NCBI GenBank assembly: GCA_052168235.1
Contig: JBQLZK010000003.1
Coordinates: forward strand, 64,001-128,000
Direction of reading: 5' to 3'
Origin: Thainema sp.
Lineage (GTDB): Bacteria > Cyanobacteriota > Cyanobacteriia > Phormidesmidales > Phormidesmidaceae
Length of the DNA stretch: 64,000 nt
Part shown: positions 3,907 to 64,000 of the stretch, piece after piece
How the letters are laid out: every line of letters begins with the position of its first letter
Numbering within the stretch: the stretch's first letter is position 1
Position numbers and translations under genes: made by a program
Notes under the pieces: generated by a model
The model's database searches: none
Told to the model about the DNA's origin: nothing
Seen by the model: only the letters and a program-made list of their open reading frames with translations

Positions 3907-6146
3907 ATGACTGGATTTGAGCCGCTGATTGGCTGGGGAGTGGGGCTAATCTCCAGCATTGCCACCGACATTTTTAAAGAGCGAGCCAAAAAGCTAGCAG
4001 ATAAATGGGATTTTGACCTCCTAGATCGCGAATTGCGCCGAGCATCAGAGCAGTATATCAAGAACTACGAAAAGCGACATGGTCAACTAAAAATCGTTTG
4101 TGCCGGGATGGATGCTCCGGTCAAGCTGGATGAGGTGTATACAGCGGTTGAGTTTTTGGACTCTTCAACGCGACGATACTTTCGCGATGCGGATTCCCTA
4201 GAAGACTGGTTTCGCAAAAGTGGCAAGCGTAGCTTCTCCTATTCTCATTCAACGAAACAAAAAGGGATTAAGGTTGCGAATCGAGAGCAATACTTGCTGG
4301 TGTTGGGTGGGCCAGGAGTGGGGAAATCGACTTTTTTGCGAAAGGTAGGTTTAGAAGCGCTGAAGGGAAAGCAAGGTGAATATGAGCATCGCTGTATTCC
4401 GGTGATGCTGGAACTGCGGCTGTTGACGAAAGAGATTACGGTTGAACAGGCGATTGCTAAAGAGTTTGCCACCTGTGGATTTCCAGAAGCAGCAGAATTT
4501 ACGACGGGAGCATTGGAAAATGGCAAGCTGCTGGTGCTGCTGGATGGCTTGGATGAAGTCCCCAGCGATCATCTGAATATTGCGATTCAGCAGATTCAAG
4601 ATTTAGTGGATCGCTATGGCGATAATCGCTTTATTGCTTCTTGTCGAACGGTGGCCTATCACGGTGGGTTTCCGCACTTCAAAGATGTAATGATGGCGGC
4701 CTTTGAGGATGAACAGATTGAGCAGTTTATTCGAGCTTGGTTTCGTTCCGAGAAGGATCGGGAATTAGGAACGGCGCAGAAATGTTGGGAGTTGTTGAAC
4801 AGTAAGGACTATGCGGCGGCGAAGGAACTGGCGCAAACGCCGCTGTTGCTGACGCTGCTGTGTGTGGTGTATGACCAACTGCAAGATTTTCCAAAGAAAC
4901 GAGCACCGCTGTATGGCGAAGCATTGGATGTGCTGCTGAGTAAATGGGCAGCGGAAAAACGACTGGAACGTGACCCAATCTATCGAGAATTAAGTCCAGA
5001 ATTAGAGCGAATTTTGCTGTCTGAAATTGCCTATGATAGCTTTGCTGAAGATCAGCTTTTCTTCTCGCAGCAAACAGTTACAGATCAAATCAAAGAGTTT
5101 TTGATTAGTAATCTGAATGCACCCAAACATTTGAATAGCGAAGCGGTTTTAGATGCAATTGAGCTTCAGCAAGGCATTTTAGTGGAACGAGCGCGAGATA
5201 CCTATTCGTTTTCGCATCTGACGCTGCAAGAATATTTGACAGCAAAATACATCGTTGATAATCAGCAGGTTGATTGGCTAGTTGAAAATCACCTAACTGA
5301 TGAACGCTGGCGAGAGGTGTTTTTGCTGGTAGCGGGGTTTATGCCTGGACGGACTGGAGCAGATACACTACTGGAAAAAATGGAGCAGCAAGCACAGATT
5401 TACGCCGTCAAACCGAAGCTACAAGCACTGCTGCAATGGGCAAATGAAGCTACAGCAGGATCAGAAAGCGCTATCAAACCCGCTGCGAAACGCACAGCCG
5501 CAGTATTTCTAGCCATCACCTGTGCCATCGCCCGCGCCCGCGCCCTCAATCTCGACCTCACCTGCCCCCCGCTCTTGACCGCATCATTGCTCTTGCTCGC
5601 GCCATCGACCGCAACCGTGTCCTCGATCTGGCCATCGCTCGTGCCCACACCCGTTCTAGCTCCATCGCCGTCGACATCAACCGTGCCCGCGACATCGACC
5701 ACACTCGCGCCATTACACTTACTCGCGCCAGTAACTATCACGACCGCGACTATGCCCGTAAGCTTGCTCATGCCCGCGACCATATCCTTGACAACAACCG
5801 CGACCGCGACTATGCCATTGCCTCAGAATTCGAAAAAGTAAAAGTCTTTAAACTCTTTGATGCTAATGTTCTTAGATCTACTTTGTATGATGTGCAGTGG
5901 ACATTATTAAGTAATGATGATACTCGATCCGTTTTTGATACATTTATTGAGAAAACATGGCAAGCCTGGTTCGATACACTAGGGCTTGATGCTGATACTG
6001 CAACTTTCTCTAAAGAAGAAGTGGATGCTCTAAATAACTATTTCTACGCCAACGAACTAATGGTTCGCTGTAAAAAAGCCGCTGTAAGAGTTTCACCCGA
6101 CACGTGGGCAGGCATTGAAGACCGTATGCTGCGCGTCATAGACTGA
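3907..6146 (+). pseudogene. NACHT-domain (STAND) NTPase with a one-base frameshift near the C6 tract at 5565-5570
   Basis: Walker A GGPGVGKST, Walker B LLDGLDEV, TPLLL, FSHLTLQEY, WREVFLL; from 5571 the alternative frame reads ALDRIIALARAIDR... without a stop into the 5883-6146 ORF (YFYANELMVRCKKAAVRVSPDTWAGIEDRML). Confidence 0.85.
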
Positions 6147-16520: not shown

Positions 16521-17261
16521 ATGACCAATCGCCCCCAAAACAGTTGGTTCAATAGTTCCGCGTCTCAACATCTCGGTAGCCAAGCCGCGAACTGGCAAAA
16601 GCAAATTACTGCAATCGCACAGCGCTACAACAAAGAATATCAGCGGCAACCGTTCGATCTGCCCGCCGAAGTTGAAGCCATGCCCGTTTTTCACGAATGG
16701 GCCTCCGGAGCGCTAGCCGCCAAAAAATCAACCCCATTTTGGGAACTGGCGAAACCCAAGAAAAATCAGCACTGCCTGGATCTGGGCTGCGGCGTCAGCT
16801 TTCTGATTTATCCCTGGAACGAGTGGCAAGCCTACTTCCACGGTCAGGAAATCAGCAGCGTCGCGCAGGAAACCCTCAATTCCCGCAGCCCCCAGCTCAA
16901 CTCCAAGCTGTTCAAAGGTGCGCGTCTCGCTCCGGCTCATAAGCTGGAGTACGATGCAGATTATTTTGATCTTGCGATCGCAGTTGGCTTTAGCTGCTAC
17001 TACGACTTGGACTACTGGCAAACGGTACTAGAAGAAGTGCAGAAGGTTTTGAAACCCGGTGGCGCATTTGTATTTGACGTGCTGAACCCTGACATTCCCC
17101 TCGCCGAAAACTGGGCCATTCTAGAAACCTACCTCGGCGCAGAAGTCTTTCTCGAATCCATAGCCGACTGGAAAGCCTTAATTAAAAAATCTGGCGCAAA
17201 AGTTACCAAGCAGCGCGAAGGTGAGCTATTCCACGGTTTCTGCGTCAAGTGGCCAACCTAG
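16521..17261 (+). CDS. Class I SAM-dependent methyltransferase
   Basis: CLDLGCGVS, FDLAIA, VLKPGGAFVFD. Confidence 0.9.
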   Translation: MTNRPQNSWFNSSASQHLGSQAANWQKQITAIAQRYNKEYQRQPFDLPAEVEAMPVFHEWASGALAAKKSTPFWELAKPKKNQHCLDLGCGVSFLIYPWNEWQAYFHGQEISSVAQETLNSRSPQLNSKLFKGARLAPAHKLEYDADYFDLAIAVGFSCYYDLDYWQTVLEEVQKVLKPGGAFVFDVLNPDIPLAENWAILETYLGAEVFLESIADWKALIKKSGAKVTKQREGELFHGFCVKWPT

Positions 17262-17282
17262 ATCCGCTTCCCCAAACACCCC

Positions 17283-17578
17283 CTACCGTGTATACACATC
17301 TTGATCACTGCTTCTCAACCCCGAAATGATCCCCCCTTGCCCCCCTTAAAAAGGTAGGGCTGATTCTCTAGCAGAATAATAATTCTGTAACTCCCAATTT
17401 ATGGTTCTTTGCCAAAACGGGTTGAACGAGGAAATAGGACTTACGAGCATTTTCTTTTTTTAGAGAATCAGCCCTACCTTAAAAAGGGGGGAATTGACTC
17501 AAAGTTCCCCCTTTTTAAGGGGGATTTCGGGGGATTTCAGCGTTGAAACGGAGTCTAGGGACTTGTTATACACAGTAG
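17283..17578. mobile_element. MITE (outer) with 12-bp target-site duplication
   Basis: Imperfect TIRs CTACCGTGTATACACA / TGTTATACACAGTAG; CCCAAACACCCC at 17271-17282 and 17579-17590. Confidence 0.8.
17355..17476. mobile_element. MITE (inner, 122 bp) nested in the outer MITE, 11-bp TSD
   Basis: Perfect 16-bp TIR TAGGGCTGATTCTCTA / TAGAGAATCAGCCCTA; CCTTAAAAAGG at 17344-17354 and 17477-17487. Confidence 0.85.
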
Positions 17579-17590
17579 CCCAAACACCCC

Positions 17591-17657
17591 GTAAGGGAGG
17601 GTTTAACCGTTGACTCTAAACTCCCAATCAACATTGGTGAACAAAACCCGCCCTTAC
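17591..17657. repeat. REP/REPIN-like element (GTAGGGGCGGGTTT...AAACCCGCCCCTAC family)
   Basis: GTAAGGGAGGGTTT...AAAACCCGCCCTTAC. Confidence 0.7.
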
Positions 17658-17712
17658 AGATCTCACTCAAAACTAATCAATAAAACCCGCTCTACAACAG
17701 GGTTTATTTTTC

Positions 17713-18483
17713 GTGAAAAGCTCGAAACGAATTTGGTTAATTGGCGGCACTCAGGAAAGCGCTGAGATCGCACATGCCCTCATCCAGCATCAGATTCCCG
17801 CTCTCGTCACCGTCACCACCGAATCCGCCCGCCAGCTTTATCCCCAATCTTCAAGCTTAGATATTTGGGTTGGACGGTTAGCTGATGATGAAATGCCGCA
17901 GTTTATACAGAATCAGGGAATCAGCGCAATTGTAGACGCCTCTCACCCCTATGCCGTGGCAATTTCAAAATCTGCGATCGCAACCGCCCAAGCTCTCTCA
18001 ATTCCCTACCTGCGCTACGAACGACCTGCGATCGCAGCAGACCACCCCAGCCATCCAACATTTCCGTCAATAGAAGATTTAACAGCCAGCGATATCTTGT
18101 CCAATCAGCGGGTCTTGCTGACCATTGGCTACCGCTGGCTACCGCTATTCCAGCCGTGGCACGACCGAGCAACCCTGTTTGTACGGATCTTGCCGTCAAC
18201 CGTTGCCCTCAACGCCGCTTTAGCCGCTGGTTTCACCTCTGACCACATCATCGCCCTCCGTCCCCCTGTCACTCCTGCACTAGAACAAGCCCTATGGCAG
18301 CAGTGGCAAATCTCAATGGTCGTGACAAAAGCATCCGGCACGGCTGGAGGAGAAGACACTAAGCGCCAAGTTGCCGCGCAGCTTGGCATTTTGCTGGTGA
18401 CGATTGAGCGCCCTGCAATCACCTATCCCAATCAAACAAATGATATAGAACAGGCCATTCAATTCTGCATCAATCACCTGTAG
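17713..18483 (+). CDS. cobK: Cobalt-precorrin-6A/precorrin-6x reductase
   Basis: IWLIGGTQES, IVDASHPYA, YLRYERP, VVTKASGTAGG. Confidence 0.93.
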   Translation: MKSSKRIWLIGGTQESAEIAHALIQHQIPALVTVTTESARQLYPQSSSLDIWVGRLADDEMPQFIQNQGISAIVDASHPYAVAISKSAIATAQALSIPYLRYERPAIAADHPSHPTFPSIEDLTASDILSNQRVLLTIGYRWLPLFQPWHDRATLFVRILPSTVALNAALAAGFTSDHIIALRPPVTPALEQALWQQWQISMVVTKASGTAGGEDTKRQVAAQLGILLVTIERPAITYPNQTNDIEQAIQFCINHL

Positions 18484-18555
18484 GGGCGAATGGCATTCGC
18501 CCTGACCTCCAATCGCGTCGAGGGGCTTCGGGCATGGCTTCGCTAACGCCCCTAC
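18480..18555. repeat. REP-like element (GTAGGGGCGAATGGCATTCGCCC family)
   Basis: GTAGGGGCGAATGGCATTCGCCC...ACGCCCCTAC; related copies at 55806 and 58425. Confidence 0.75.
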
Positions 18556-18824
18556 TAGAACGCCTGAATCCACTCTTTGACGAAATACTCTGTCCAGATA
18601 CCGTTTTGCCAATAGGGGTCACCCTCAACTAGCGATCGCACCTCAGCTTCGCTTGCCGCTTCATAAATGCCAAACACCATCGTCGTGTCTGCCGTTGGCC
18701 CCAGCGTGATCAGCTGACCCGCTTCTTTTTGCTTGGCCAATCCGGCCAGATGCGCTTCCCGATAGGGGGCTCGCTTTTCCAGCACGTTCTCGCAATAGCT
18801 GCCCCACATCACATACTTGGGCAT
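18555..18824 (-). CDS. YciI family protein
   Basis: KRAPYREAHL, LGPT, DPYWQNGIW. Confidence 0.9.
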   Translation of the reverse strand: MPKYVMWGSYCENVLEKRAPYREAHLAGLAKQKEAGQLITLGPTADTTMVFGIYEAASEAEVRSLVEGDPYWQNGIWTEYFVKEWIQAF

Positions 18825-19417
18825 TTTTGTAATCCCTCTAACTACAACGATGAAGATTCTACCGAGGAATCTGCCCAACCATGCTACTTTCTGGCAAGAT
18901 CTAGCCTCCGTAATTCCATACTGTAGGTTAGCGTTTTCGATACGTCACCTTGTCTAGTACATCTGGCACACCTACGTAAAACTCCCGATAAACTAATGAA
19001 TATCTTTAAGATTGATGAACTGTCTCCGTAGATCTACGGCAAGGTTGAAGTGCAAAATCGGCTTGATTTCTGCTGCTTTTATGACATGTGACGTACCACA
19101 AACTAGCTTGCATAGGCAGCTTCACAGAATTGACATTTGTATTTTTTGAGTTAAAACAGGAATATCTACCTTTAGGGTAGTTATCGATACAGCATCTATC
19201 ACATACACTTAGATTTAATGTGAAGAGTTGTTGAAGTAAGTTGTGGTTTAGGAAAAGCTGCTTCAAAGCGCTTCACCTTTTTAAGATCCATCAGGGAAAG
19301 TTCGGGCCATATATTGTTGCCAAATCAAGCTGAGATAAAGCGTTGATTGGCTTACTTCACAAAGTTGAGTCCACTTTCAAACATACAGTGCTAAAGAGGT
19401 TATAGGCTGTGGGTGCT

Positions 19418-19771
19418 ATGCAGGAAACGATTCTATTCCAAGAGAACTGCGACTATCTCGAATTTGGTAGCCGTGTTTCGCGCGCGTTCTCACCGAAGCA
19501 ACGATTTTTCAAATCTATTCCGCCGGAGCGGATTGGGTTGAACGGTGAATATGATCATCACGGATTGGCGAAGCGAGTCAAGTTAGAACTGACAGAAGCC
19601 TTTGATGCAGAGACAATCAATAGTTTAAGAATTACGCAAAGAGGTCGAATTGTCATTTTCACGGGCAAGGTCGCTAACCCGCATGTGCTGGCTAGGTTAG
19701 TTAAGTTTACGCTACGGGTCAATGGAGCAGAAGGGATTGAAACTCACGGTGTGAAGTTGCTGTCGGCGTAA
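19418..19771 (+). CDS. BON-like phospholipid-binding protein
   Basis: PPERIGLNGEYDHHGLAKRV...ITQRGRIVIFTGKV. Confidence 0.8.
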   Translation: MQETILFQENCDYLEFGSRVSRAFSPKQRFFKSIPPERIGLNGEYDHHGLAKRVKLELTEAFDAETINSLRITQRGRIVIFTGKVANPHVLARLVKFTLRVNGAEGIETHGVKLLSA

Positions 19772-23972: not shown

Positions 23973-24038
23973 GTAGGGGCGGGTTTAGCCACCAATTATG
24001 GCTTTAAATCGAAATTGACCAACAAAACCCGCCCTTAC
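23973..24038. repeat. REP/REPIN-like element
   Basis: GTAGGGGCGGGTTT...AAAACCCGCCCTTAC between convergent genes. Confidence 0.75.
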
Positions 24039-30325: not shown

Positions 30326-30391
30326 GTAGGGGTAGGTTTAGCAGATCAATCTGCACCGTGTCATAAACTTGACGACGAAACCCATCCCTAC
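30326..30391. repeat. REPIN-like element, near copy of 59722-59787
   Basis: Shares spacer CAATCTGCACCG.GTCATA..TTGAC and flank TACAGTTTGCG with the 59.7-kb copy. Confidence 0.8.
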
Positions 30392-42263: not shown

Positions 42264-42331
42264 GTAGGGGCAGGTTTAGCCGCCAAATGGTTTATCTCAG
42301 TCCAGCTTGACTATCAAAACCTGCCCCCTAC
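42264..42331. repeat. REP/REPIN-like element
   Basis: GTAGGGGCAGGTTT...AAAACCTGCCCCCTAC. Confidence 0.75.
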
Positions 42332-58049: not shown

Positions 58050-58412
58050 ATGACACAAACCACTCAGCAAACGGCCCAACAGGGCATTCAGATGACGGAC
58101 GCGGCGCTGAAGCATGTTCTGGCTCTGAAGGAAAAGCAGGGTAACGATCAGCTTTGTTTGCGGGTTGGTGTCCGCCAAGGCGGTTGCTCTGGTATGTCCT
58201 ACATGATGGATTTTGAGGACATTAGCAATGCCCGTGATGATGATGAAGTTTACGATTATGAAGGCTTCAAGGTGATCTGCGATCGCAAAAGCCTGCTCTA
58301 CCTCTACGGCCTAGTTCTGGACTACAGCGACGCCCTGATCGGCGGTGGCTTCCAGTTCACCAACCCCAACGCCAACCAAACCTGCGGCTGCGGCAAGTCC
58401 TTCGGCGCTTAA
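58050..58412 (+). CDS. iscA: A-type Fe-S carrier (IscA/SufA/HesB)
   Basis: [28 protein letters not shown]. Confidence 0.93.
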
Positions 58413-58424
58413 CGCCAAATCTTG

Positions 58425-58493
58425 GTAGGGGCGAATGGCCATTCGCCCTGAACCCATTAACATTACGTAAGGGCGAATGCCATTCGCCCCTAC
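58425..58493. repeat. REP doublet
   Basis: GTAGGGGCGAATGGCCATTCGCCC ... GGGCGAATGCCATTCGCCCCTAC. Confidence 0.8.
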
Positions 58494-58511
58494 AGGTGTT
58501 TATTTTTGGCC

Positions 58512-58949
58512 TCAAATAATTCCGTCTAGGTCGATGCCAAAATCGGTTTCAGACTGTTGCTGCTGATTCATTAACATCAGCAAAATGTGGTTTAGGTAGC
58601 CATCAACGCCGCGCAGTTTCTCTTCTAAAATCTGCAGCCCACCGTTGGCATATTCCTGAAACAGATTGGCCCGCATCTGCTCATGGTCTTCGTCGTGCAT
58701 CAGGACTTTGGCATCTTGCTCATGAGCCACGGCAATCAGATCAATAATTTGAGCATTCTTGAACTGATTTAACGGAATCGGATCCGGTTCTTTTCGGGAT
58801 GTCTCGCCCAGCGGTAGACGCCGTTGATAATGAAACCCCACGACCGCCGCGAACGTAATCGCCTCAGCGTAGGTCTGAAAAACCTCGTTTCTGAGCCGTC
58901 TGACTAACTCAGCTTTTTCCGTGGCAACTTTAATTCGAATTGCAACCAT
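58512..58949 (-). CDS. DNA phosphorothioation (dnd)-associated protein 4-like
   Basis: RIKVATEKAELV...FQTYAEAITFAAVVG...EPDPI...FQEYANGGLQIL; family recognised from memory; co-oriented with the DndD-like ATPase. Confidence 0.75.
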   Translation of the reverse strand: MVAIRIKVATEKAELVRRLRNEVFQTYAEAITFAAVVGFHYQRRLPLGETSRKEPDPIPLNQFKNAQIIDLIAVAHEQDAKVLMHDEDHEQMRANLFQEYANGGLQILEEKLRGVDGYLNHILLMLMNQQQQSETDFGIDLDGII

Positions 58950-59009
58950 GAGCAACAGGTAGTGTTTTGGTTGGGGGGCGAGGGAACAGAGAAGCTATTG
59001 AGTAAACGA

Positions 59010-59660
59010 CTATTGACTGAACAATCCAATTAGCCAGCGGTTAATCGCGCCATCATCTTCGGTCTGTCCCCGTTTGAGCGCTTCTTCTACCGTGATTAAT
59101 TCTAATCCTGGTAGGACTTGTGAAGACTGAATTTCACCACTGCGTCCATCTGCGACTTCAAATGCGATCGCGCTGCCGCTCGTGACATCAACCACCCAGT
59201 ATTCGCACACACCGAACCGCTCGTAGAGCAAACGCTTGCGGCCTAAGTCATCGCTGAGCGTAGTTGACGCAATCTCCACCACCAACTGGGGCACGCCATA
59301 GCGATCCACATCTAAGGGTTCTGATTCGCGCGGCGGCAACTGAAATGTTGATCCAATATAAAACGCAATATCGGGCTGTCCATCTCGCATTCCCGACTTG
59401 CGCAGGGTGGGATTGGTGAGTTCTACGATGCGGATATCTTTCAGCGTGGCAAACAGGCTGATTACATTGGACAAAATTGAATTTTCGCGCGCGTGCAGTG
59501 GCCCTAGTGCTGCCATTTCAATCCTCATCCAGCCATTGTCGTAATAGCATCGTCCAGGCTCATAGGCTGGATGGTCGGCCAAGCTCGCATACTGCTGCCA
59601 AGTCGCTTGTACCCAAGTATCTGTTTCAATTCTGGGTGATGACGGTACCGCTCGAACCAT
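59010..59660 (-). CDS. Uma2 family PD-(D/E)xK endonuclease
   Basis: QPDIAFYIG, PQLVVEIASTTLSDDLGRKRLLYERFGVCEYWVVD. Confidence 0.93.
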   Translation of the reverse strand: MVRAVPSSPRIETDTWVQATWQQYASLADHPAYEPGRCYYDNGWMRIEMAALGPLHARENSILSNVISLFATLKDIRIVELTNPTLRKSGMRDGQPDIAFYIGSTFQLPPRESEPLDVDRYGVPQLVVEIASTTLSDDLGRKRLLYERFGVCEYWVVDVTSGSAIAFEVADGRSGEIQSSQVLPGLELITVEEALKRGQTEDDGAINRWLIGLFSQ

Positions 59661-59721
59661 CTTGATGTCCTCAGCCTTAACTTAAATGTCGCTCAACTTG
59701 AGTTAAATACATTCGACATTG

Positions 59722-59787
59722 GTAGGGGCGGGTTTAGTAGGCCAATCTGCACCGAGTCATAGATTTGACAGCAAAACCCGCCCCTAC
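59722..59787. repeat. REPIN-like element between queE and uma2
   Basis: GTAGGGGCGGGTTT...AAAACCCGCCCCTAC. Confidence 0.8.
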
Positions 59788-59821
59788 AGTTTGCGAATTT
59801 ATCAAATCCATGATCCTTATC

Positions 59822-60478
59822 CTATTGCACACCCAAGAACTTATGCGTTTGCAGACTCACGCGCCACTGTGGATGTTTGAGAACGTAGTTAAACACAATG
59901 TCTTGGCTGTTGAGCGACTGCCATTCCGGTTGCAGCAGCTTGACTATAGCATCTGGAACATGAGCTGCCTGCTGTTCGGCCCACTCCAGATCTGATTCGT
60001 CGGCAATTACCACTTTCAGTTCATTGGCATGGGCATAGATGCTGGGATGGGGAGCCTTAGATCGCTTGGGCGAAAACGTCACCCAGTCAAACTTGCCGCT
60101 AAAGGGATGAGCGCCGGAGGTTTCTAAATTTACTTGTAGGTTAGCTGCCTTAAGCTGCCGAGTCAGTTCCGTTAAATCGTGCATCAGCGGTTCTCCGCCC
60201 GTGATGACGACAATTTGGGGATTGGCGGCACGGGCAGCGGTGACCAGAGCGGCGATCTCCTGACGGGGATGGCGCTTGGGATTCCAGGAGTGTTTGGTGT
60301 CGCACCAGGGACAGCCAACATCACAGCCCGCCAGTCGGATAAAAAAGGCATTGGTGCCAGCCCAAAAGCCCTCGCCTTGAATCGAATGAAAGGTTTCGAC
60401 AATCGGCAGATCCGTTGCGCTCACCTGACTGACTGGTCGATGAATTGTGTTTGGATTGATCATTTCAGCGTTAGTCAT
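59822..60478 (-). CDS. queE: 7-carboxy-7-deazaguanine synthase (radical SAM)
   Basis: ETFHSIQGEG, FIRLAGCDVGCPWCDT, ITGGEP, LETSG, SLQTHK. Confidence 0.94.
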   Translation of the reverse strand: MTNAEMINPNTIHRPVSQVSATDLPIVETFHSIQGEGFWAGTNAFFIRLAGCDVGCPWCDTKHSWNPKRHPRQEIAALVTAARAANPQIVVITGGEPLMHDLTELTRQLKAANLQVNLETSGAHPFSGKFDWVTFSPKRSKAPHPSIYAHANELKVVIADESDLEWAEQQAAHVPDAIVKLLQPEWQSLNSQDIVFNYVLKHPQWRVSLQTHKFLGVQ

Positions 60479-60860
60479 CTTCGTATTCCACCCAGGAGTT
60501 CGGCGTTTCGGAGACGCAAACCTTCAGCTTCACGCCTTCTGGGACTTCTTTCTTGGTGCGATCGTAAATGTATTGAGCAATCATTTCCGCCGTGGTTTCA
60601 TAGCCCTCCGGCAGCACTTCATTCAGCACGCAGTGATCGAGGCCGCCCTTGAGCATATCCCGCTTGGCCCAGCGCAGCGTCCGAAAATCGCAGACCATCA
60701 CCTCATGGGGACAGTATGCCGACGAATGCAGCCGATGCGATTCAGCTTCGATGCGGACTCGGTAGGTGTGACCGTGCATCCGCCCACAAGGCCCGTCGTA
60801 GTCGCGAATTGAATGGGCAGCATCAAACGTAAATTCAGTTGAGAGTTTCCACTTTGGCAT
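60471..60860 (-). CDS. queD: 6-carboxy-5,6,7,8-tetrahydropterin synthase
   Basis: FDAAH, CGRMHGHTY, LDH..LNE, TAEMIA, VSETP; 8-bp overlap with queE. Confidence 0.92.
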   Translation of the reverse strand: MPKWKLSTEFTFDAAHSIRDYDGPCGRMHGHTYRVRIEAESHRLHSSAYCPHEVMVCDFRTLRWAKRDMLKGGLDHCVLNEVLPEGYETTAEMIAQYIYDRTKKEVPEGVKLKVCVSETPNSWVEYEDD

Positions 60861-60875
60861 AAATTCCAGCCTATC

Positions 60876-62948
60876 CTATTCCCGATCAACCCTTAATACT
60901 TCTGTCCAGGTATGCTCATTGGCGCTTGGCTTCACCAGCGGATAGGTGCGCCCGTGCAGATGAATGTCATCCAGCTCGGCATCAGGTTTGGCCGTATAGT
61001 AAACCAGCACATATTCAGCTGCGATCGCACTATCCATTTCAGTTTCCACTTCACCGCGCCACTGGGTTTTGCTGACCAGGACGATCAGTTGATCGGCCAG
61101 TTGGGTGATTGCCTGGGCAATATTGCGCCGATTCAGTTCGTCCAAGCTGCCAAAGGGCGAATCCATCACCACTGGGAAGCCGCCGCTGTCTAATCCTAGC
61201 GCTGAATGCTTCTGACTCCAGTAGCGCACCCGCTCAATCACGCTGCCGATAAAGGCCAAGCTGAGGATTTGATTCTGCCCCGTAGAGGCGGCAACGGGCA
61301 CTCCTTCCGCCTGGGCCGGATCGACCAGCATCAGCTCGTAGTCCTCCGTCAGCTTCGGCAGGTAGGAGGTAAACGAAATCGACCGCCAAATTTCCCGCAC
61401 TTTCTCCTCCAGCTTGGCCCGAAAGGCCAAATCCACCCGCCGCGTCACTTCTTCCAGCCGCTCCACGGCATCTTGGGCGGCGGCAATTTGGCGCTTGACC
61501 CGAGCCTGCTCCTTATCTTTGGCCTTGTGCTCTTTAATTTGCTTATTCGCCGCCAGAATATCGCCATCTAGTCGCTGAATCGCTTCATCTACGCGGCTGT
61601 CCTCCCGATGCAGATCAATAATCCGCAGTTCAATATTTTCCAGCCGCTGCTCCATGCCCTGCACATTGACATCTTCATTGCCCTTGAGCTGCTCTCGAAT
61701 CGCCGCCAGCTTATCCTCGGTTGCGCCAATCTGCCGCCGCAGGTTGTCAATACTGGCCTGCTCCTGCTCAATCTCGGCCCAAAACTCCGGCACCTGCCGC
61801 TCCCAGGTTCTCACATCGCCATTGAGCGCCAGCACCGATTCTTCCACATCCTGTAGTCCCGCCCGATTCAGCCAGGTTTCCACCTGATGACGATGCTCGC
61901 TCTCCGGCGTCAGCGGCGCACCGCAGATACAGCGCTGATCATCCAGCAAATCCTGGACAAACTGCTGCTTAATCCCGGCGGGCAGTTCCCCCCGCTGGCG
62001 CAGGTCGTTGGCTAGGTTGCGAAACTGCGCGATCGCACTATCCAGAAACACCACATAGCCCCGCGCCGAAATCGTTCGCCGCAGCCGATCTTCACTGCGC
62101 TCCAGCTGGCGGGTCAGCTCATTCTGCTGACGGTCGAGGTCATCCCGTCGCCCCTGAATTTCGCCCACGCTGGCCAAATCGCGCAACTGGGCGCTGATGC
62201 GCTCCTTCAGTTCCTGCTGATTGTCCAGCTCAACCGCGATTTCCTCTTTGCGCTTCACCTGCTGATCGCGCTGCTCCTCCAGCAGGGCCTTGTCGGCCAG
62301 TAACCGCTGCGTTTCCGAATCGCCAATATCCCGCAGCTCCCGCTCCAGTGCCCGCCGCGCATCGTCCAAATGCCGCACCGAGCGCTCCAGCACTTCCACG
62401 CTCAGCAGCGTTTTAATCGCCCGCGCCATGTCGGCCTTGTTTTCCGACTTGACGATCCGCTCAATCCGCTCACCGTCAAAGAAAAAGTAGCGATGCAAAC
62501 TCTGCGGCAGCACCAAGCCAATCGCCGCTTCCACCTCATCTTCCGGCTGAGGCTTGCCGTTGATTGTCAGCTGTAGCGCACTTTCCGTCTCGGAAACTTC
62601 CCCATCCGCAGGTTTGCTTTTGGTCGATTTGGGCTTAACCTGCGATCGCAGTCTCTTGGCCTGGTACAGCTTGCCATTATGCTCAAACGCCACTTCCACC
62701 CAGCAGTCTACCGACTTGCCAGCCTTAGCCTCCGCCACAGCACGACTGTTTACCATTGGCCCCGGCGCAAAAGCGGCACTGGTTTCGCCATACAGCACCC
62801 AGGTAAACGCATTCAGCAGCGTCGTTTTGCCTGCCCCATTGTTACCGTGAATCACCGTCGTGCGGCGCTCCCCCTGATAGGCCAGTTCCAGTTCCACCTC
62901 TCCCCAAAACTGCCGAAAATTAAAGAGCTTGAGCGACATCAGCTTCAT
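60876..62948 (-). CDS. DndD-like SMC/Rad50-type ABC ATPase with central CxC
   Basis: NFRQF, Walker A GNNGAGKTT, YFFFDGERI, long coiled coils with RCICG, signature ASTGQNQ, Walker B VMDSPFGSLD. Confidence 0.88.
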   Translation of the reverse strand: MKLMSLKLFNFRQFWGEVELELAYQGERRTTVIHGNNGAGKTTLLNAFTWVLYGETSAAFAPGPMVNSRAVAEAKAGKSVDCWVEVAFEHNGKLYQAKRLRSQVKPKSTKSKPADGEVSETESALQLTINGKPQPEDEVEAAIGLVLPQSLHRYFFFDGERIERIVKSENKADMARAIKTLLSVEVLERSVRHLDDARRALERELRDIGDSETQRLLADKALLEEQRDQQVKRKEEIAVELDNQQELKERISAQLRDLASVGEIQGRRDDLDRQQNELTRQLERSEDRLRRTISARGYVVFLDSAIAQFRNLANDLRQRGELPAGIKQQFVQDLLDDQRCICGAPLTPESEHRHQVETWLNRAGLQDVEESVLALNGDVRTWERQVPEFWAEIEQEQASIDNLRRQIGATEDKLAAIREQLKGNEDVNVQGMEQRLENIELRIIDLHREDSRVDEAIQRLDGDILAANKQIKEHKAKDKEQARVKRQIAAAQDAVERLEEVTRRVDLAFRAKLEEKVREIWRSISFTSYLPKLTEDYELMLVDPAQAEGVPVAASTGQNQILSLAFIGSVIERVRYWSQKHSALGLDSGGFPVVMDSPFGSLDELNRRNIAQAITQLADQLIVLVSKTQWRGEVETEMDSAIAAEYVLVYYTAKPDAELDDIHLHGRTYPLVKPSANEHTWTEVLRVDRE

Positions 62949-63115
62949 CGAACCGTTTCCTTAATAATCCGCAGCACGTCGGCCTTGATGCGCGGTCGAT
63001 CAATCGCCAGATGCGCCTTCTCAAGCTGAATCACATCCCGAATGATTTTCTCCACCTTCGGCGGCGCAGTTTTGATCGGTTCTTCGATTTCGCTTTGGGG
63101 ATTCTTGGCAGACAT
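62945..63115 (-). CDS. Small protein (56 aa) translationally coupled to the ATPase
   Basis: MSAKNPQSEIEEPIKTAPPKVEKIIRDVIQLEKAHLAIDRPRIKADVLRIIKETVR*; ATGA overlap with the ATPase start. Confidence 0.75.
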   Translation of the reverse strand: MSAKNPQSEIEEPIKTAPPKVEKIIRDVIQLEKAHLAIDRPRIKADVLRIIKETVR

Positions 63116-63419
63116 GGAGTGAGGAGTAGTAGATGAGCAGTTTCGGTTGAGCAAACCATGAAACCCAGCACCAGCATAGGTTCCATTATTGTTAGCTTAT
63201 CCTACACACTCTAATTCAGTTTTACTAGTGCGATCGCACTTCCTAACTAGATACAAAGCGCGATCGCACCCACTCATCAACACAAAACCGATCACCTTCA
63301 ACTTACCTTCGACGAGGTCCAGGACGGTCGTTCGTCCTGGTCGAAGGGGTCTGGGGGCAATCGAAATGCCCCCAGTAGCCAGGTTCTACAACCCCTCAAC
63401 TATCATCAAACGCATCCCA

Positions 63420-63653
63420 TTACGGCATCGTTCGCTTCCGACTCATCACGCTGATGTACTCCCCACTGCGACCCGTCGGCAGCGGCTTACTCCAGGCAAT
63501 GCGATCGCAATAGCCCAGCGCATCCAAACGATGAATGGCATCGGTCAGTGCAGAGTAGTCGCCGAGCAGAATATGGCGAACGGTTTCCTGATTGAAGGTT
63601 GGCAAGCTGAAGGCGGGAGAGACAGTAGCCTCTCCGGTGGGTGATTGAAACAT
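63420..63653 (-). CDS. Small cyanobacterial hypothetical protein (77 aa)
   Basis: ATG 63653 preceded by GGAGA; VRHILLG...AIHRLDALGYCDRIAWSKPLPT...GEYISVM resembles a recurrent cyanobacterial family. Confidence 0.72.
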   Translation of the reverse strand: MFQSPTGEATVSPAFSLPTFNQETVRHILLGDYSALTDAIHRLDALGYCDRIAWSKPLPTGRSGEYISVMSRKRTMP

Positions 63654-64000
63654 ACGGGTGTCTCCGTTTTCAACTAAAGGAAAACGGGGAACTATCCAGA
63701 TCCCTATTTGATGCGGTAAAGGCAAGATAGCAGGACTAAAATGATCCCAGTCATCTCGACTTACCTAGGTTAAGTTGGGATGATCAGGAGATTTGGGAGG
63801 TGGCACCCTCTCAGATCTCCGCCTAGAATCATTCCCCGCAAGACTAAAAGTATCAAGAAGCAGCTAGGCAGTTCAACCGTATTTATCTGTTTGTAAGGAT
63901 TAGGTTTGGAACTGCTGACTTGAAGCGGTTTTGTTTGGGTACATGGGAGTGCGATCGCACTTCCCCAAACTAAAACCGCGATCGCACCTTTCCAATCCAA

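Follow-up and report, generated by a model that had tools for sequence, protein, structure and literature searches.

A predicted Pbe (CxC ABC ATPase-DndE) defence locus of a cyanobacterium with queD and queE genes between pbeC and uma2

In preQ0/queuosine synthesis, QueD catalyzes the second step (H2NTP to CPH4) and QueE the third (CPH4 to CDG). Genes of the preQ0 pathway also accompany DpdA/B/C in the Dpd system of 7-deazaguanine DNA modification. A defence system against phages, PbeABCD, has already been named and is also called the CxC ABC ATPase-DndE system (Xiong et al., 2019; PMC6459918; Rakesh et al., 2024; PMC10853773). Here, we analyzed a 64-kb stretch of cyanobacterial DNA (the window) in which genes of a predicted Pbe locus enclose queD and queE. 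Most probably, this locus is a known Pbe module in which housekeeping queD-queE genes, along with a REPIN-like repeat, were acquired in the interval from pbeC to uma2.

Six co-oriented genes, all on the minus strand, occupy positions 58512-63115 (Table 1), and the arrangement of the genes, their overlaps, and the repeat that an earlier, sequence-only reading had reported there were all recovered. The TGA stop codon of pbeB and the ATG of pbeC overlap as ATGA, the pbeC stop is followed after a 15-nt gap by the queD ATG, and queD and queE overlap by 8 nt. Each of the genes pbeB, pbeC, uma2, and pbeD is full length and keeps its conserved motifs. A simple scan of 58300-63500, too crude for cyanobacterial promoters, found 1 promoter-like site (2.7 expected) and 2 terminator-like sites (5.6 expected), with neither kind of site in the pbeC-queE interval. 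Given the short gap, the overlap, and the lack of such sites, the que genes are probably expressed together with the pbe operon, and this co-expression could be functional.

Table 1. Positions of the genes and the repeat of the Pbe locus in the window
Feature	Coordinates	Strand	Remarks
orf101	63420..63725	-	101 aa counted from first start codon; upstream of pbeB
pbeB	62945..63115	-	56 aa from ATG; 69 aa if the upstream TTG is used
pbeC (CxC-type ABC ATPase)	60876..62948	-	690 aa; PADLOC PbeC match
queD (predicted 6-carboxytetrahydropterin synthase)	60471..60860	-	129 aa; Pfam PTPS match
queE (predicted 7-carboxy-7-deazaguanine synthase, radical SAM)	59822..60478	-	218 aa; similarity to solved QueE
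REPIN-like inverted pair of dispersed repeat	59707..59802		between queE and uma2
uma2 (restriction-endonuclease-fold nuclease)	59010..59660	-	216 aa; Pfam PF05685
pbeD (DndE cognate, dnd_assoc_4)	58512..58955	-	147 aa; TIGR04062

The ATPase matched the PADLOC PbeC family (PDLC02753) at full length with an E-value of 4.9e-244, the profile match extending over residues 1-650. Both C340-I-C342 and the P-loop were invariant in an alignment of 12 sequences (A1), and a full-length PbeC from another sample (P0001) was 96% identical. The score against the DndD equivalog model TIGR03185 was 139.7 bits, under the cutoff of 245.85. Judged by its sequence, the ATPase is the PbeC of the published Pbe (CxC ABC ATPase-DndE) defence system. 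The product previously termed "dnd-associated protein 4" scored 121.1 bits against TIGR04062, above the cutoff of 74.25. Its AF2 model (pLDDT 86.7) was compared with the PDB by Foldseek, and the listed matches through rank 14 were all DndE chains (4lrv, 5wtu, 7x4e) with probabilities of 0.91-0.99 and TM-scores by target of 0.53-0.65, at E-values of only 0.06-0.24; the PbeD sequence profile had no matches to PDB sequences at E<=10. These profile and fold matches identify the predicted protein as PbeD, the DndE cognate, and together with the PbeC match they support the earlier claim of a defence-type locus in which a DndD-like CxC ATPase is accompanied by a DndE-like protein. No PADLOC or Pfam family was matched by PbeB or PbeD.

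Related cyanobacterial loci were inspected as the best 80 of 557 found in a collection of genome contigs (the best 80). The 56-aa ORF is PbeB, the small partner of PbeC: small homologous ORFs occur in 67 of the best 80 loci, the 4-nt overlap with the pbeC start recurs in 59 of 68 pbeB-like ORFs, and 12 columns are invariant in an alignment of 26 PbeB sequences (A3). Prediction of a PbeB-PbeC complex gave a score of 0.57 versus 0.00 for the best of 3 controls; of 157 solved complexes, 116 reached the mark for this score, as did 2 of 215 mismatched pairs, but only 18 of the 157 did so at <=0.60, along with both passing mismatched pairs, and these calibration counts hold only roughly because the prediction used its own alignments. 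The prediction runs agreed in at least 96% of contacts with a partner pLDDT of at least 74, which hints that PbeB and PbeC may form a complex. Uma2 matched Pfam PF05685 (E 2.1e-25; 89.6 bits versus a gathering threshold of 27), and its orthologues (47-61% identity) are present in 28 of the best 80 loci. In 71 of these 80 loci at least 1.5 kb of sequence follows pbeC, and in 26 of the 71 uma2 is the first ORF after it.

QueD matched Pfam PTPS (E 2.6e-30; 105.3 bits, cutoff 22.4) and aligned with E. coli QueD (4ntm; E 2.4e-11), including the C-x3-HGH motif; against the NCBIfam equivalog TIGR03367 it scored 75.3, below the cutoff of 89.25. QueE matched TIGR04322 with an E-value of 9.7e-41 at a score under the cutoff, and all five NCBIfam QueE models scored below their cutoffs (best 139.6 versus 200). 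Its similarity to solved QueE proteins (6nhl, E 1.7e-30; 4njg, E 8.3e-22) comprises the C-x3-C-x2-C motif. In the lists of homologues (the best 120 per protein), identities were 75-91% for QueD (75-84% for those named QueD) and 63-90% for QueE (69-78% for those named QueE); the listed homologues are mostly unnamed, and the named ones are cyanobacterial QueD or QueE. By these comparisons, both proteins appear to be ordinary members of highly conserved cyanobacterial families. Base composition was considered as a mark of foreign origin and rejected: GC and GC3 of queD and queE are ordinary and fall among the values of the other window genes, and those of pbeC, about 1.7 sd above 32 other window genes, are not decisive. 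The REPIN noted in the earlier reading is real, with arms at 59707-59748 and 59761-59802 (42 nt each, 74% complementary, 12 nt apart) and a 14-nt core present in 9 window copies at up to 2 mismatches (0.44 expected), mostly as inverted pairs.

The recurring cassette in the best 80 of 557 loci consists of the PbeA helicase, PbeB, PbeC, often Uma2, and then PbeD, and it often adjoins dndB, dndC, and dndD. PbeA (PADLOC E 3.9e-156) was found in 63, pbeD downstream of pbeC in 56, DndB in 29, and DndC in 26 of the best 80 loci. The PbeA of the Pbe system is an SF2 helicase that usually carries a fused HKD nuclease, whereas the PbeA-like ORF of the related cyanobacterial loci is helicase-only (478 aa, matching positions 241-681 of the 682-position PbeA profile). 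In the cyanobacterial Pbe cassette, a well-conserved PbeB recurrently occurs together with a helicase-only PbeA-like ORF and the Uma2 nuclease, and the PbeB-PbeC-Uma2-PbeD module is a form common in filamentous cyanobacteria. No queD was detected in any of the best 80 loci, even at E<=1, and queE was present in a single one, L042, from a second, distant genome; rarer cassettes with que genes may exist beyond these 80. In L042, queE forms a transcription unit of its own no more than about 550 bp downstream of pbeC, with a minus-strand ribosomal protein S21 gene in between, era after queE, and no queD. A rough post-hoc estimate puts the chance of this proximity at about 0.05, beyond casual expectation. 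In the closest named relative (L001), the 155 nt after pbeC encode a Uma2-like N-terminus and not QueD. Across loci, the pbeC-pbeD interval accepts varied cargo. The IscA/HesB, DUF6930, and CDF genes that flank the locus had no counterparts in any of the 80 loci, so the cassette context differs in each genome; when 51 window ORFs were compared by blastp with every ORF of the loci, the only shared neighbour was the orf101 family.

Upstream of pbeB, 845 bp remain before the window end at 64000 and PbeA is not among them; a tblastn search of the window with the PbeA-like ORF of a relative gave chance-level matches only. In the relatives, the PbeA helicase is upstream of PbeB in 60 of 73 loci with sufficient upstream sequence, which favours the earlier suggestion of a helicase beyond the window end. 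As only 845 bp are available on this side, PbeA may lie beyond 64000, and dnd genes may be found there as well. Of the 56 window ORFs with at least 80 aa, 55 were compared with one or more family libraries and the remaining frame, 63189-63644 on the plus strand, with PADLOC only; none of dndB, dndC, dndD, iscS, queC, folE, tgt, or dpdA was found. These scans bear out the absence of dndC, dndB, iscS, queC, and dpdA/tgt from the window noted by the sequence-only reading and, with the DndD equivalog score below cutoff, its view that the locus corresponds to neither canonical dnd nor canonical dpd. The orf101 product matched no Pfam, NCBIfam, or PADLOC family. Its homologues in four related loci (L006, L002, L009, and L012; 27-37% identity; common motif WS.P.PT...GEY(I/V)SV) have a divergent HTH gene on one side and dndC on the other, and orf101 may belong to the locus.

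The lack of PbeA in the 845 upstream bp and of any dnd gene in the window means that the module may be incomplete, and we considered whether it is a decaying remnant without PbeA and dnd partners that no longer defends, its promoter and frames persisting mainly for queD-queE expression. Such a remnant would fit the distances in the relatives, where PbeA ends no more than 1.1 kb from pbeC in 49 of 73 loci, the lack of dndB, dndC, and dndD in the window, and the position of orf101, which leads into pbeB here versus dndC in the relatives, as expected after a past deletion or rearrangement; moreover, the archaeal system required all four pbe genes and PT marks according to PMC6459918. However, pbeB, pbeC, uma2, and pbeD are intact, and the nearly identical PbeC from another sample is also full length. 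PbeA is likewise absent within 6 kb in 13 of 73 related loci, inserts separate pbeA from pbeB in several, and the gene may simply be located past the window end, and the same paper counts 320 of 553 PbeAC pairs without nearby dndCD (Xiong et al., 2019). We regard the remnant as unlikely.

The sequence-only reading had instead proposed a CxC complex repurposed for 7-deazaguanine, with the CxC ATPase-DndE pair installing or sensing 7-deazaguanine DNA marks made from the CDG or preQ0 of QueD/QueE, and the transglycosylase or nuclease encoded elsewhere. If true, this idea would connect the scanning machinery of the Dnd family with a second kind of DNA chemistry. It draws on the close spacing of pbeC, queD, and queE, as in an operon, on the adjacency of queE and pbeC in L042, and on the suggestion in PMC10853773 (Rakesh et al., 2024) that some DndD/CxC systems without DndC possibly mediate non-phosphorothioate modifications. 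Tight packing in a single genome, however, is no evidence for a functional link. That reading named a que linkage not conserved elsewhere as refuting the idea; in the best 80 of 557 relatives the linkage is not conserved, and the idea fails its own test. In addition, the single queE of the relatives stands among the housekeeping neighbours S21 and era, QueD and QueE resemble ordinary orthologues from cyanobacteria, the 64-kb window contains no tgt/dpdA, queC, or folE, and in the relatives this ATPase is accompanied by dndB, dndC, and dndD. Among the papers searched, none unites QueE, QueD, and Pbe; QueD, QueE, queuosine, and deazaguanine are absent from the main text of PMC10853773 and from the embedded-defence preprint (10.1101/2024.01.29.577857), and PMC6459918 mentions no que genes in its main text and, among the supplement passages listed, QueE only within whole-genome gene lists. 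The installation or sensing of 7-deazaguanine marks by this pair is accordingly very improbable. We give just as little credence to a functional embedding, by which queD-queE would be expressed only with pbeBC and CDG/preQ0 would yield a 7-deazaguanine mark or signal that the CxC ATPase-DndE pair would install or read instead of phosphorothioate, again with a transglycosylase elsewhere.

Under the favoured explanation of a Pbe module with acquired que genes, PbeC and the DndE-like DNA-binding protein PbeD would pair up and scan DNA, as in the published family, and PbeB, made in step with PbeC, would probably sit on it. The effector activity would come from a nuclease, presumably Uma2, plus the PbeA helicase if one is present beyond the window. 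Self-recognition would normally use phosphorothioate marks from dnd genes, of which the window has none. In this lineage, queD-queE and the REPIN-like repeat would have been placed between pbeC and uma2, and the two genes would probably be read through from the pbe promoter as passengers rather than as defence parts. A known Pbe cluster in which, among the loci inspected, ordinary que genes landed in this lineage only offers no indication that a novel kind of DNA modification is at work.

Compared with the Dpd system, the locus likewise has two preQ0-pathway genes within a defence-type locus, but the window contains no DpdA/TGT-like transglycosylase, DpdB, or DpdC, and the preQ0 set (folE, queD, queE, queC) is represented by queD and queE only, a linkage that is not conserved in the inspected relatives of this locus. 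With canonical DndBCDE, the locus shares PbeC as a sister of DndD and the DndE-like predicted fold of PbeD; it differs by the DndD equivalog score under the cutoff and by a window without DndC, DndA, or DndB. As in housekeeping QueD and QueE, the motifs are those of the solved proteins and the similarity is significant, although the genes are located here inside a defence cassette and seem to lack their own promoter. From the Pbe system as described, the locus departs by a window without PbeA, by a Uma2 nuclease gene that is a recurrent extra member in related cyanobacterial loci, by a PbeB that is well conserved and not fast-evolving, and by the embedded queD-queE, seen in none of the other inspected loci (best 80 of 557). 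It shares with that system the CxC ABC ATPase PbeC with its coiled-coil insert and CxC zinc hook, the small PbeB immediately upstream, the DndE-cognate PbeD downstream, and a cassette that in cyanobacterial relatives adjoins dndB, dndC, and dndD.

The six co-oriented minus-strand genes described in the sequence-only reading are all present, exactly where it placed them, and they form a member of the known Pbe (CxC ABC ATPase-DndE) kind without a PbeA inside the window. By its sequence, the ATPase is assigned as PbeC: it matched the PADLOC model PDLC02753 over its full length (E 4.9e-244) and scored 139.7 bits against the DndD equivalog (cutoff 245.85). Alignment with 11 homologues revealed an invariant P-loop and, midway along the coiled-coil insert, an invariant C-I-C triplet (residues 340-342). 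The triplet is the CxC zinc hook that defines the CxC ABC ATPase, equated with PbeC, in excerpts of Rakesh et al. (PMC10853773).

The last gene of the locus encodes PbeD, termed a DndE cognate in the same excerpts, with 121.1 bits against TIGR04062 (dnd_assoc_4; cutoff 74.25). Its sequence profile found no match among PDB chains. For its AlphaFold2 model (34 sequences, mean pLDDT 86.7), the Foldseek matches listed from the PDB to rank 14 were all DndE chains (4lrv, 5wtu, 7x4e), at probabilities of 0.91-0.99, TM-scores by target of 0.53-0.65, and weak E-values of 0.06-0.24. The small ORF at the head of the locus is PbeB, the protein encoded directly upstream of PbeC. Complex prediction for PbeB and PbeC gave a score of 0.57, compared to 0.00 for the best of three controls, with at least 96% of contacts agreeing between runs and a partner pLDDT of at least 74. 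Solved complexes passed the mark used in 116 of 157 cases and mismatched pairs in 2 of 215; at scores of 0.60 or below, only 18 of the 157 solved complexes passed, along with both of these mismatched pairs. The counts are only rough given the use of our own alignments. The prediction lends weak support to formation of a PbeB-PbeC complex.

Coordinates of features in the window and in related pbeC loci (L numbers)
Feature	Sequence	Position	Strand	Remark
NACHT protein gene	window	3907-5841	+	644 aa
REPIN-like core sites	window	17591-17657; 23973-24038; 30326-30391; 42264-42277		intergenic
15-nt inverted repeat	window	58425-58493		perfect; 39 nt apart
pbeD	window	58512-58955	-	147 aa; after uma2
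uma2	window	59010-59660	-	after spacer
queE-uma2 spacer	window			161 bp; holds inverted repeat
Inverted repeat, 42-nt arms	window	59707-59748 + 59761-59802		inside queE-uma2 spacer
queE	window	59822-60478	-	8-nt overlap with queD
queD	window	60471-60860	-	starts 15 nt past ATPase stop
pbeC	window	60876-62948	-	690-aa ATPase
pbeB	window	62945-63115	-	56 aa; TGA stop overlaps ATG of ATPase gene
orf101	window	63420-63725	-	directly upstream of pbeB
orf101 homologue	L006	15408-15701
orf101 homologue	L002	16637-16891
orf101 homologue	L009	16067-16318
orf101 homologue	L012	16441-16689
rpsU	L042	3467-3643	-	ribosomal protein S21
queE	L042	3873-4487	+
era-like GTPase gene	L042	4870-5850	-
Pbe modules	L054	9687-13584; about 16871-19610		second copy
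Cluster 13 uma2	L072	7476-8051		example
PbeA-like ORF, cluster 2	L073	4315-5751		example; 478 aa

QueD and QueE make CPH4 and CDG, respectively, en route to preQ0 and queuosine. Both gene calls probably hold. E. coli QueD 4ntm aligns to the window QueD at E 2.4e-11 with the C-x3-HGH motif in place, and the solved QueE structures 6nhl (E 1.7e-30) and 4njg align to the window QueE, which carries the C-x3-C-x2-C cluster motif. Both scored under the NCBIfam equivalog cutoffs. Identities to the best 120 homologues listed were 75-91% for QueD and 63-90% for QueE (7999 matches at E<=1e-10), and the named entries among them, a minority, were cyanobacterial QueD/QueE. Such values, above those of PbeC, are in keeping with conserved core genes. 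The GC and GC3 of queD and queE lie inside the range of 32 other window genes; those of PbeC are ~1.7 sd above them. Two QueD-like proteins (P0254 and P0258; 130 and 129 aa) share 83-84% identity with the window QueD; both are assigned to the chromosome of Geitlerinema sp. PCC 7407 and could be two gene copies or a double annotation of one gene.

PbeC had 1311 homologues at E<=1e-20 among 8000 candidates scored. Among the best 120, every named protein was cyanobacterial (48-67% identity), and one protein was 96% identical to the window PbeC. Scanning genome contigs with the PbeC alignment yielded 557 encoded relatives, of which the best 80 loci were kept; all organisms named in the titles were cyanobacteria, and a minority of the loci were titled only "uncultured bacterium". 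In each locus, ORFs were called from 6 kb before pbeC to 8 kb after it, clustered, and named by Pfam and PADLOC. A PbeB-like small ORF was found in 67 of the 80 loci, and 59 of 68 such ORFs share a 4-nt overlap with the pbeC start. PbeD is encoded downstream of pbeC in 56 loci, and a PbeA-like ORF is present in 63 (PADLOC PbeA, E 3.9e-156). Since the latter matches only positions 241-681 of the 682-position PADLOC profile, it comprises the helicase but lacks the nuclease part. A further uma2 (cluster 13) is found just upstream of the PbeA-like ORF in 14 loci, at the place expected for the HKD nuclease domain, and its product may stand in for the missing nuclease. The neighborhoods further include DndB-like (34/80), DndB (29/80), DndC (26/80), EEP-family nuclease (20/80), and HNH nuclease (15/80) genes, and several carry a second DndD-like ATPase. 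L054 has a second copy of the PbeA/B/C/D module, and L053, L009, and L016 likewise have a second module copy or a second DndD-like ATPase after dndC; such duplications fit those described in excerpts of PMC10853773. Dnd-Pbe neighborhoods of this type already appear in parts of Xiong et al. (PMC6459918), whose tables list cyanobacterial PbeAC, and in those of Rakesh et al. (PMC10853773).

An ortholog of the window Uma2 (47-61% identity) was found in 28 of the 80 loci and is encoded by the first ORF past pbeC in 26 of the 71 loci whose sequence continues for at least 1.5 kb beyond this gene. In L005, L007, and L010, pbeC is directly followed by uma2 and then pbeD, and in L001, the closest named relative with sequence after pbeC (67% identity), the remaining 155 nt encode a Uma2-like N-terminus. 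A review passage cites Tong et al. 2018 for Uma2-family nucleases near solitary dndBCDE clusters (PMC6435447), and thus the Uma2 link is not new. The pbeC-pbeD interval is variable in general: among the 56 loci with both genes, it measures <300 bp in 5, 300-1500 bp in 33, 1500-3000 bp in 9, and >3 kb in 9. Its cargo across genomes comprises a TumE-like toxin pair, a DUF4332 protein, an opposite-strand methyltransferase, and ORFs of no known type, and the spacer seems to be a favored site for embedded genes. Cargo loci include L014, L020, L025, and L063 (clusters 28 and 29) and L022, L024, L028-L030, L037, and L069 (clusters 20 and 21).

The sequence-only reading proposed that a Dnd-like complex had been repurposed for 7-deazaguanine marks through the embedded queD-queE pair. 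Given the tight junctions, queD-queE and pbeBC probably share a transcript in this genome. However, the proposal fails the test of conserved linkage: queD was absent from all 80 related loci, even at E<=1, queE occurred in one (L042, a Symploca genome; 43% identity), and no transglycosylase was found in the window. In L042, an opposite-strand rpsU (Pfam E 6.5e-21) separates pbeC from queE, an era-like GTPase gene follows, and neither queD nor PbeD was found in the contig; this queE is a housekeeping neighbor at the edge of a truncated module. As a second case of queE adjoining pbeC, L042 is a mild coincidence without explanation. No paper in the searched literature, which for PMC10853773 covered the main text, makes a que-Pbe link. 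We consider the deazaguanine reading highly improbable and concluded that queD-queE is most likely an incidental passenger pair in a known system. Comparison of gene orders points most likely to an ancestor with the order pbeB-pbeC-uma2-pbeD, in which a 1.2-kb piece with queD-queE, and a REPIN-like repeat at its far end, would have come between pbeC and uma2 in this lineage.

The earlier "REPIN" label is fair: at <=2 mismatches, the window contains 9 copies of the inverted-repeat core, most of them in inverted pairs, against an expectation of 0.44 from shuffling. Three of the four further intergenic core sites are inverted pairs ~40 nt apart. The 15-nt inverted repeat between pbeD and a convergent IscA/HesB-type gene shares the core GTAGGGGCG with the REPIN-like element. 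Outside the locus, the window has the usual gene content of a cyanobacterial chromosome (mfd, men genes, sulfite reductase, treYZ, a group-2 sigma factor, and Ni-SOD); it also carries 87 copies of GCGATCGC. The NACHT NTPase-domain protein (Pfam E 5.7e-12; weak PADLOC PDC-S60 match) may represent another defense-type gene far from the Pbe locus.

PbeA was not found in the 845 bp from pbeB upstream to the window end; of 73 loci in relatives, 49 have it ending <=1.1 kb from pbeC, and 60 have it within 6 kb. The small ORF orf101 belongs to a small-protein family without a Pfam match, whose members have the motif WS.P.PT...GEY(I/V)SV in common. In four Leptolyngbya-like relatives, the family member has a divergent HTH gene on one side and dndC on the other; its position before pbeB here hints at a rearrangement or deletion. 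The module is possibly incomplete; alternatively, PbeA and the dnd genes may be located past position 64000. By analogy with the family, PbeC and PbeD would scan DNA with PbeB seated on PbeC, and Uma2 would act as the nuclease, along with PbeA if present.

Family-library scans of the window ORFs found no dndB, dndC, iscS, queC, folE, tgt, or dpdA. In contrast to canonical Dnd systems, the locus combines an ATPase under the DndD equivalog cutoff with a lack of dndB and dndC in the window, and it differs from Dpd in having no dpdA/tgt, queC, or folE there. We agree with the sequence-only reading that it is neither canonical dnd nor canonical dpd; the locus is of the Pbe kind.
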